This document shows, piece after piece, positions 48,859 to 52,376 of a stretch of 64,000 nucleotides of DNA (positions are counted from its first letter, which is position 1; every line of letters starts with the position of its first letter). Both the position numbers and the translations under genes were made by a program. The DNA comes from Escherichia phage JS10. A model generated the notes under the pieces. It saw nothing but the letters and a program-made list of their open reading frames with translations, was not told the origin of the DNA and did no database searches. The DNA lies in sequence record EU863409, one strand, 5' to 3'.

Positions 48859-48882
48859 AAAAAAGGCCCGAAGGCCTTTTAT
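48859..48882 (-). terminator. UUCG-loop terminator
   Basis: aaaaaaggcccgaaggcctttt. Confidence 0.55.
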
Positions 48883-50922: not shown

Positions 50923-51195
50923 TCAACGGTTATGTTTTAAAATACTATAAAGTTCTTCGACTTGGCTTGCATTCAGACAAATCATATCATTTTCTTGTTG
51001 GAGCGTGATTCCGCCTTTTTCTTCCCAATCTTTAACAAAGATGTCATCGTCAGACTCTTCAACATCTGCCAAAAGGACAATAATACCGTCTTCAGAATTA
51101 CCACTTGGGTCGTATAACATTACAGTTTCCTCGCTAGCCATGAAAAGAATAAACCTATTAAAACTGGACCAATAAGCATTGTAAGCCAAGCCCAA
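50923..51195 (-). CDS. hypothetical protein
   Basis: 90-aa ORF. Confidence 0.45.
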   Translation of the reverse strand: MGLAYNAYWSSFNRFILFMASEETVMLYDPSGNSEDGIIVLLADVEESDDDIFVKDWEEKGGITLQQENDMICLNASQVEELYSILKHNR

Positions 51196-51211
51196 GGTTC
51201 AAGATAGTAAA

Positions 51212-51469
51212 TCATCTCATGCTCCTGTGCCAACAGTTACGTGGCTCACGTTTAAAAATTTCATCATGCATTGACTGACAACCTATACAATATATCACAC
51301 CTTTGATAGCTTGACGTCGTGCTTCAGGAATCTCTTCATCACAATCAAAACAATATTTAGCCGATTCACGTTCAACTGCTACTTGCTTACGGGCGTGTAC
51401 TATAGCGGCCTGAACGACCGCTTCCATTTCGAGCTGTTCAGCTCCGTCCTTAGCAAATCCAACAGCCAT
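51212..51469 (-). CDS. DksA/TraR-family C4 zinc-finger protein
   Basis: CFDCDEEIPEARR...CIGCQ (C-x2-C-x16-C-x2-C with the IPxxRR signature). Confidence 0.55.
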   Translation of the reverse strand: MAVGFAKDGAEQLEMEAVVQAAIVHARKQVAVERESAKYCFDCDEEIPEARRQAIKGVIYCIGCQSMHDEIFKREPRNCWHRSMR

Positions 51470-51651
51470 TATGCTTTCAACTCATTAAGATACTCAACCA
51501 ATGCTGCTTTAGAGTTAGTCAAATCTCTTTTACACTGCTCTATTCCAGAATATGAATAACCTTCGCAATATTCAACAGCTAGGTCATTGGAGGCGTTTTC
51601 AATATGCTGGGCGAGTTTAATAATTTTCTCAATCTGTTCGGTAGTTAACAT
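51469..51651 (-). CDS. hypothetical protein
   Basis: 60-aa ORF. Confidence 0.4.
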   Translation of the reverse strand: MLTTEQIEKIIKLAQHIENASNDLAVEYCEGYSYSGIEQCKRDLTNSKAALVEYLNELKA

Positions 51652-51655
51652 AATA

Positions 51656-51892
51656 TCACCAGTATTTGTTGATAGTAGAAATTAATTCTTGGGCCTGGGT
51701 AGTCTTCAGTTTACATCCACAACCCTTTAATGTGTCTTTAAGGAGCCATGGTTCCTTGAGCTCGTCCTTTTCTAGACGAATTCTGTATCCTCGATAATCG
51801 GCAAAGATACTTCGGTCGTCGAATATCTTAATCTCAAGGATACGACCGTTGATTTCATATTCTAATGAAACCGTAGTACTTGTAAGTTTCAT
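51656..51892 (-). CDS. hypothetical protein
   Basis: 78-aa ORF downstream of a promoter cassette. Confidence 0.45.
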   Translation of the reverse strand: MKLTSTTVSLEYEINGRILEIKIFDDRSIFADYRGYRIRLEKDELKEPWLLKDTLKGCGCKLKTTQAQELISTINKYW

Positions 51893-51908: not shown

Positions 51909-51949
51909 GTTGATAGGTCTATAGTATCACGTTCCTAGAGGATGTAAAC
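51909..51949 (-). promoter_or_regulatory. early-promoter cassette
   Basis: gttgataggtctatagtatcacg...gtaaac. Confidence 0.6.
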
Positions 51950-51960
51950 ACTAAAACGAA

Positions 51961-51986
51961 AAAAGGTCCCACCGAAGTGGGACCTT
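51961..51986 (-). terminator. hairpin terminator
   Basis: aaaaaggtcccaccgaagtgggaccttt. Confidence 0.5.
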
Positions 51987-51989
51987 TGA

Positions 51990-52376
51990 TTATTCTAACG
52001 TTAACAAATACTTAGTCTGGTAAAAGACACCAGTGATGTCGTCCAAAGTCGATTGGATGGCCTTAGGAAGATTTTTGTAGATTTTATCAGACGCTTTAAT
52101 AAGTTCATCAAGAAAATCTATGGGGTCTTTAGGCAGTTCTGAAGCAGATGGTAGTGATGCTTTATATTCTTTGCCACTAAATCCTAAATACTGTTCACTG
52201 AACTGGTCTAGTGGTCCTTGAACTTCTGTATAATAGAAGTCATATGCTTTGTGTCTTGCATAGCTTTTGGTTTCCAAATGGGCTGACTTAAAATAGGCTA
52301 AAGAAACCAACAGCCAACCAATATAAGAATCTACTTCAGTCCCTCGACTAAGTACGAAATCATTGAATTTCATCAT
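51990..52376 (-). CDS. hypothetical protein
   Basis: 128-aa ORF. Confidence 0.5.
   Translation of the reverse strand: MMKFNDFVLSRGTEVDSYIGWLLVSLAYFKSAHLETKSYARHKAYDFYYTEVQGPLDQFSEQYLGFSGKEYKASLPSASELPKDPIDFLDELIKASDKIYKNLPKAIQSTLDDITGVFYQTKYLLTLE

Follow-up and report, generated by a model that had tools for sequence, protein, structure and literature searches.

The window, a stretch of 64,000 nucleotides of Escherichia phage JS10 (EU863409), carries on its minus strand at 51212-51469 a gene for an 85-amino-acid zinc-finger protein of the DksA/TraR family, which is equivalent to orf95 of phage JS98 and is YbiI-like. The start codon ATG lies at 51469-51467 and the stop codon TGA, which is included in the span, at 51214-51212. 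The translation (MAVGFAKDGAEQLEMEAVVQAAIVHARKQVAVERESAKYCFDCDEEIPEARRQAIKGVIYCIGCQSMHDEIFKREPRNCWHRSMR) was 100% identical to the counterpart in phage MN04 and contains CFDCDEEIPEARR...CIGCQ, with the four cysteines C40, C43, C61 and C64 arranged as CxxC-17-CxxC. An open reading frame with this C4-finger string had been placed at exactly this span in the preliminary description, which gave no strand, and is present there. The ATG start was confirmed by the N-terminus MAVGFAKDGAEQ, which was invariant in all the full-length homologues read. The gene is known already, being annotated as 'ybiI' in UP19, as 'C-4 type zinc finger protein' in dhaeg and dhabil and as a hypothetical protein in JS98, and the homologue in Citrobacter phage Moon was called a DksA/TraR zinc-finger protein in the genome note of that phage (2015).

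The gene is located in the variable nrdC-tk region between a mobD.3 homologue and orf94/mobD.1, and over the surrounding 2.4 kb the identity to the Escherichia phages MN04, JS98 and UP19 (Dhakavirus, Tevenvirinae) was 98%. The window is accordingly that of a Dhakavirus, a JS98-like and T4-like coliphage. It is the third gene of a minus-strand unit that begins with a 78-aa ORF (51656-51892; phrog_10363, E=5.6e-54, function unknown) and continues through the mobD.3 homologue (51469-51651, 60 aa, phrog_653), the zinc-finger gene, a 31-aa hydrophobic ORF (MIYYLEPWAWLTMLIGPVLIGLFFSWLARKL, 51120-51215), which matched phrog_12165 over its full length (E=1e-23), and the JS98 orf94 homologue (50923-51120, 65 aa, phrog_4844). 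Overlaps link each gene in the series from mobD.3 to orf94 with the next: the mobD.3 stop overlaps the zinc-finger start (TAATG), the start of the 31-aa ORF overlaps the zinc-finger stop (ATGA) and the stop of the 31-aa ORF overlaps the start of the next gene (TAATG). The 78-aa ORF has a strong Shine-Dalgarno sequence (GAGGAG) and is annotated in UP19 and not in JS98; the 31-aa ORF is annotated in Mosigvirus DCP548 and unannotated in JS98 and UP19.

The nearest upstream promoter-like site, at 51921-51948 on the minus strand (GTTTACA-16 nt-TGaTACTAT), is T4-early-like and would serve the unit as its promoter. A motif search found neither a MotA box nor a late TATAAATA motif between this site and the zinc-finger gene, and the early-type site together with the lack of these motifs in the interval makes early expression likely. 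At 51962-51987 (minus strand) an 11-bp GC-rich hairpin followed by a T-run is terminator-like and stands at the end of the preceding rI.-1 unit; as it looks like the rI.-1 terminator, it would mark the boundary of the unit with the zinc-finger gene. This hairpin and another at 48861-48880, both perfect and GC-rich, can be read as terminators on both strands and bracket a unit running from the 78-aa ORF to nrdC.11. Directly upstream of the zinc-finger unit is a homologue of rI.-1/MobD.6 (51990-52376, minus strand, phrog_858). The database label of this homologue, 'starvation-inducible transcriptional regulator', looks unverified, and its position adjoining a putative stringent-response mimic may be coincidence. 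A conserved partner gene, sought by analogy with QisA of phage VP882, was not found, the neighbours being different in the window, CC31, JD18, DP45 and PBECO4.

Membership of the DksA/TraR C4 zinc-finger family, which had been proposed from the sequence alone, was upheld by the Pfam model PF01258 (zf-dskA_traR), which matched residues 38-66 above its curated gathering threshold (38.1 bits, with the gathering score at 24.9, E=1.6e-9). PHROG 54, 'DksA-like zinc-finger protein', was matched as well (E=4.6e-20). Among solved structures the sequence matched YbiI (2KGO, E=3.6e-9) and TraR (5W1S/6N57, E of about 2e-4). None of the NCBIfam subfamily or equivalog cut-offs for YbiI, TIGR02419, TraR and DksA was reached: the protein scored 76 bits against a cut-off of 96 with the YbiI equivalog NF008243, over profile positions 1-70 of 88 only, 51.5 bits against 59.7 with TIGR02419 (the phage/plasmid TraR subfamily), 29.2 bits against 108 with the F TraR model NF010268 and 13.4 bits against 105 with the DksA model NF033459. 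By sequence comparison, the protein is nearest the YbiI branch without qualifying as YbiI. DksA proper was ruled out by the length of 85 aa, the single-helix architecture and the NF033459 score, and an F TraR orthologue by the NF010268 score and the missing D3. PADLOC returned no match among anti-phage defence families.

In an exhaustive HMMER search over 1.84 billion representatives the entire clade fell into one 50%-identity cluster (P0037). The full-length clade comprised 42 protein clusters at 60-94% identity and of 84-87 residues each (one extended to 145 aa), and the carriers with a long sequence on record were either T4-like, with genomes of some 170 kb, or jumbo phages of the Asteriusvirus PBECO4 type, with some 350 kb. 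As these jumbo phages are unrelated to the T4-like ones, a protein clade common to both implies horizontal exchange. The Moon 'zinc finger protein' was 76% identical with the RNCWHRSMR tail kept. In PBECO4 (L008, NC_027364) an 85-aa homologue with 67% identity lies at 2501-2758, in a gap of the RefSeq annotation between gp253 and gp252. More distant are CC31 gp107, JD18 gp090 and Acinetobacter DP45 gp123, which are YbiI-type proteins of about 45-48% identity; their genes have a comparable place in the genome, with rI upstream and a membrane-protein gene downstream, and in DP45 a nucleotidyltransferase gene also follows the homologue. Four T4-like genera have a homologue in this place. There was no copy in T4, where tblastn of the protein against the matching region gave no match and mobD.2a and mobD.2 are located instead. 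The named hosts of the homologue-carrying phages were all Proteobacteria, the phylum with RNAP Si1 and Si3.

Relative to the PBECO4 copy (63% nucleotide identity) the gene had synonymous differences in 34 codons and non-synonymous differences in 28. Within codons 1-12 all eight differences were synonymous, and so were all five within codons 76-85, one of these five being an AGC-to-TCT serine switch. Judged from these substitutions, the gene is real, conserved and under purifying selection, strongest at both ends. A decaying or non-functional ORF of the hyperplastic region might have been expected given that the region is variable, that T4 is missing the gene and that in Mosigviruses just some 28 residues of the C-terminus are left, as a chimeric remnant. 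This explanation is extremely improbable, however, as the full-length protein is kept throughout the 42 clusters from T4-like and jumbo phages, the differences against PBECO4 favour synonymous codons and are exclusively so at the termini, and translation of the gene is coupled to that of the genes on either side. On the pattern of selection, decay can effectively be dismissed.

The Mosigvirus remnants are themselves chimeric ORFs of 54-64 aa (phrog_25948), found in DCP548 (L003, 2459-2626) and in the proteins P0044, P0048, P0063 and P0065. The N-terminal 25 or so residues of the DCP548, P0044, P0063 and P0065 chimeras copy the start of an orf94-like gene (MLYD..SEDG..), and P0048 has a different N-terminus. 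All of the chimeras end in the last 28 or so residues of the zinc-finger protein (IYCVGCQSMHDEIFKREPRNCWHRSMR), with the second CxxC and the tail as the only survivors, and the homology of DCP548 DNA to the window starts at 51298. Such an ORF is a recombination scar, yet one that has persisted within its lineage (P0063 has 22 member sequences).

An AlphaFold model of the protein (pLDDT 71.8) contained helices at residues 7-29, 49-54 and 62-71 and a disordered tail; the confidence of the model was moderate, the tip and tail being below pLDDT 50 in places (about 47-57 in the tail). The model superposed on RNAP-bound TraR, with a TM score of 0.70 and an rmsd of 2.8 A for 6N57_M and 0.72 and 2.3 A for 5W1S_M, and the next structural matches were RNAP-bound DksA chains (7KHI, 5VSW). 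The predicted model has the three-part architecture of TraR, in which an N-helix, a zinc globular domain and a C-terminal helix are fitted into about 73 residues, and the length of 85 aa is explained by extensions of two residues at the N-terminus and about 12 at the C-terminus. A profile of 73 homologues aligned with TraR at 98.5% probability, with residues 21-72 placed on TraR 18-70.

Across these 73 homologues C40, C43, I47, P48, R51, R52, C61 and C64 were invariant and D8, A10, E49, G57 and Q65 were at least 90% conserved. The C4 zinc ribbon (CxxC-17-CxxC, codons 40-64, 51278-51352 on the minus strand) includes I47-P48-E49-x-R51-R52, which corresponds to I44-P45-E46-x-R48-R49 of TraR, and G57 and Q65 correspond to TraR G54 and Q62. 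The Arg-Arg pair within IPExRR (TraR R48/R49) is thus present as the invariant R51/R52. TraR uses R48 to bind the rim helices and E46 and R49 to contact beta-prime Si3, and its P45A variant is defective for RNAP binding. The position equivalent to TraR P43 was not conserved in the clade, which counts against a TraR-like reading.

The N-terminal tip (codons 1-12, MAVGFAKDGAEQ, 51434-51469 on the minus strand) was invariant, and the DxxDxA motif of TraR (D3-x-x-D6-x-A8) is incomplete within it. The tip reads F5-A-K-D8-G-A10, with the first Asp replaced by Phe in the whole clade and by Trp in YbiI, and two additional residues precede the motif relative to TraR. Neither MAFFT, phmmer nor hhalign produced an alignment of the N-terminal 20 residues with TraR. 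The equivalence of D8 with TraR D6 and of A10 with A8, and the placing of F5 at the D3 position, follow instead from the cysteine spacing and the predicted helix boundaries: the tip Asp and first Cys are 31 residues apart in YbiI and TraR and 32 in the zinc-finger protein, where the extra residue falls in the loop after the helix. TraR needs both D3 and D6, and lambda Orf73 loses most of its activity with either D3N or D6N (PMC9239242). An N-terminal extension has been suggested as weakening the activity of VHML Orf8 (PMC9239242). Among the 149 relatives classified (the best 148 new matches and P0037), 65 had a G-[WFY]-x-x-D-x-A tip and 29 had DxxDxA.

These features bear on whether the protein would bind the RNAP channel without acting as TraR does, the Phe tip mainly plugging the channel or competing for it, or having some other tip-specific effect on catalysis. 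In the competitor version, DksA/ppGpp and GreA/GreB would be excluded and phage transcription shielded from the host stringent response. In its favour, the residues that touch the rim helices have been kept whereas the tip motif for the catalytic site has changed; DksA itself needs the aspartates of its tip to function but not to bind, and Rnk offers an example of a channel binder whose only action is competition. A distinct selected tip chemistry is also suggested by the 65 of 149 relatives with the aromatic tip, in the strictly conserved form G-[FW]-x-x-D-G-A, against the 29 with DxxDxA. On the other side, X. bovienii Gp34 has no D3 and yet is an RNAP binder and an inhibitor of rrnB P1, although its IC50 is as high as 415 nM (PMC9239242), and YbiI has been reported to complement dksA, which would be unexpected of a pure competitor. 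A channel binder of this kind is on balance unlikely.

The C-terminal tail (codons 72-85, FKREPRNCWHRSMR, 51215-51256 on the minus strand) is clade-specific, extends past the end of TraR and is predicted to be disordered, and its last residues are invariant. The clade ends in RNCWHRSMR (PRNCWHRSMR), also invariant, which replaces the YbiI tail YNRRGSKDSQLR. It looks like a diverged YbiI tail rather than a new module, as the representative P0082 carries the intermediate NRKVWHRSMR. Conservation through the nucleotide overlap with the next start codon was rejected, because of the five synonymous changes relative to PBECO4 and the different downstream gene in that phage, and the constraint on the tail therefore acts on the protein. 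A second metal site formed by H68, C79 and H81 was also considered and dropped, as H68 is not invariant (N or Y in P0017 and P0030). The homologues of CC31 (L005), JD18 (L006) and DP45 (L007) keep the bacterial YbiI tail YNRRGSKDSQLR nearly letter for letter despite strong divergence elsewhere, with tips of GWGPSDDGF in CC31 and JD18 and GWGPNDPVF in DP45. A tail kept in both bacterial YbiI and the phage copies suggests that its binding target is conserved between them.

The tail raises the alternative that the protein has no action on RNAP and that the phage has borrowed a function of the YbiI branch, with the basic tail binding a protein or nucleic acid, or with a role in stress or metal metabolism. 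In its favour, strong conservation marks the tail of the YbiI branch (YNRRGSKDSQLR, or RNCWHRSMR in the clade), which TraR is without, and the tail is invariant despite many synonymous changes. The E. coli ybiI gene is sigma-S dependent (PMC4447067) and has been described as clustered within an iron-metabolism operon (PMC2613031). Gourse and colleagues noted that the C4 zinc-finger members of the DksA/TraR family are not all DksA-like in action, some members of intermediate length being among those that differ in function, and the TraR homologue of VP882 acts in complex with another phage protein. Opposed to this are the predicted fold, which is that of RNAP-bound TraR, the invariance of the RNAP-contacting IPExRR residues, the rescue of dksA by YbiI and the lack of any adjoining partner gene conserved across CC31, JD18, DP45, PBECO4 and the window. 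A function away from RNAP is accordingly a doubtful reading.

More speculative is the proposal that the YbiI-like branch constitutes a class of secondary-channel factors in its own right and not a set of weak TraRs, with an aromatic-x-x-Asp-Gly-Ala tip and a basic tail as its hallmarks. The clade would be the RNCWHRSMR tail variant of this class. In virulent T4-like and jumbo phages a factor of this class might block the access of DksA/ppGpp and Gre factors or might have a new action at the active site, with the result that phage transcription would escape the host stringent response; another possibility is that the tail brings in a second target. We regard this proposal as a tentative one of rather low probability.

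Our preferred reading, to which we assign a probability of roughly 0.55, is that the zinc-finger protein is an early, accessory and ppGpp-independent RNAP secondary-channel factor that diverts polymerase from ribosome synthesis. The gene would be transcribed early from the T4-early-type sigma-70 promoter as the third cistron in a series of translationally coupled small genes. By homology, the product would bind host RNAP and not DNA. Its single N-terminal helix (residues 7-29 or so) would enter the secondary channel, so that D8 and A10 of the acidic tip come close to the active site, the globular domain of the zinc ribbon, with IPExRR, would rest on the beta-prime rim helices and Si3, and the C-terminal helix (62-71) would face the beta-lobe/Si1. 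Open complexes at the kinetically fragile rRNA and r-protein promoters would then be destabilised without ppGpp, as with TraR and lambda Orf73, and the polymerase set free would be available to phage promoters. The benefit to the phage would be that of an accessory fitness factor and not of an essential takeover function. This reading is favoured by the family matches, the TraR-like predicted fold, the conserved contact residues, the precedents of YbiI and the phage TraR homologues, the proteobacterial hosts, the early-type promoter, the selection on both termini and the recurrent genomic position. Against it stand the NCBIfam scores below their cut-offs, the Phe at the D3 position, the two additional N-terminal residues, the variable P43 equivalent, the N-terminus that did not align with TraR, the moderate confidence of the model and the success of T4 without the gene.

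All five of the phage TraR homologues that have been tested, including the one without D3, occupy the DksA site of RNAP and act as inhibitors of rrnB P1 without ppGpp (PMC9239242). Phage TraR homologues inhibit rRNA and r-protein promoters without ppGpp, and lambda Orf73 raises the burst size about fourfold. The suggestion in the preliminary description that the protein may contribute to a takeover of host transcription was overstated, since the phage homologues characterised so far are accessory and non-essential and lower rRNA and r-protein transcription, and since T4 is without the gene. That T4 does well without it makes a core takeover function impossible.

This is an ordinary accessory gene that was annotated already, and the gain from its analysis is incremental. 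Some modest interest attaches to its variant tip, to its tail and to its occurrence in a virulent phage, and a role at RNAP appears plausible. The TraR-family phage proteins characterised so far all come from temperate phages or conjugative plasmids. If the protein is TraR-like, the ppGpp-independent reprogramming of RNAP would extend to strictly virulent T4-like phages and to jumbo phages, and would add one further layer to the crowded set of RNAP modifiers of T4-type phages. If it differs through its variant tip or tail, it would instead offer a handle on the function of E. coli YbiI.

Relative to the known systems, the protein shares with DksA the C4 zinc-finger domain and the Asp-x-Ala element of the tip. 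DksA has 151 aa and a two-helix coiled coil, whereas the zinc-finger protein has 85 aa and a single N-helix, and the ppGpp-contacting part of DksA has no corresponding region in it. The likeness to TraR (5W1S, 6N57) is closer and consists of the three-part architecture and the conserved equivalents of R48, R49, E46, P45, Q62, D6 and A8. TraR and its phage homologues are likewise encoded on mobile elements of proteobacterial hosts, and lambda Orf73 and P2 Orf82 are among the early genes, as the zinc-finger gene probably is. It differs from TraR in the Phe at the D3 position, the two further N-terminal residues and a tail that is about 12 residues longer. The TraR-type phage homologues characterised (lambda Orf73, P2 Orf82, VP882 Orf61, VHML Orf8 and X. 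bovienii Gp34) are all from temperate phages, in contrast to the zinc-finger protein of a strictly virulent T4-like phage.

The top sequence match with a solved structure was YbiI (2KGO, NF008243), with 41% identity over residues 1-69. No functional work on YbiI or on a homologue from a T4-like phage turned up in literature searches, nor did any published YbiI-type biochemistry; the sole piece of functional evidence on YbiI is a remark, given as 'data not shown', that its over-expression rescues the auxotrophy of a dksA mutant (PMC2613031). YbiI, with 88 aa, is in the same length class as the zinc-finger protein with 85 aa. The two tips, MASGWANDDA in YbiI and MAVGFAKDGA in the zinc-finger protein, have M-A-x-G-[WF]-A-x-D-x-A in common, and both proteins have the CxxC-17-CxxC arrangement, IPxARR and a conserved extension past the C-helix. 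YbiI is chromosomally encoded, whereas the zinc-finger protein is that of a virulent phage.
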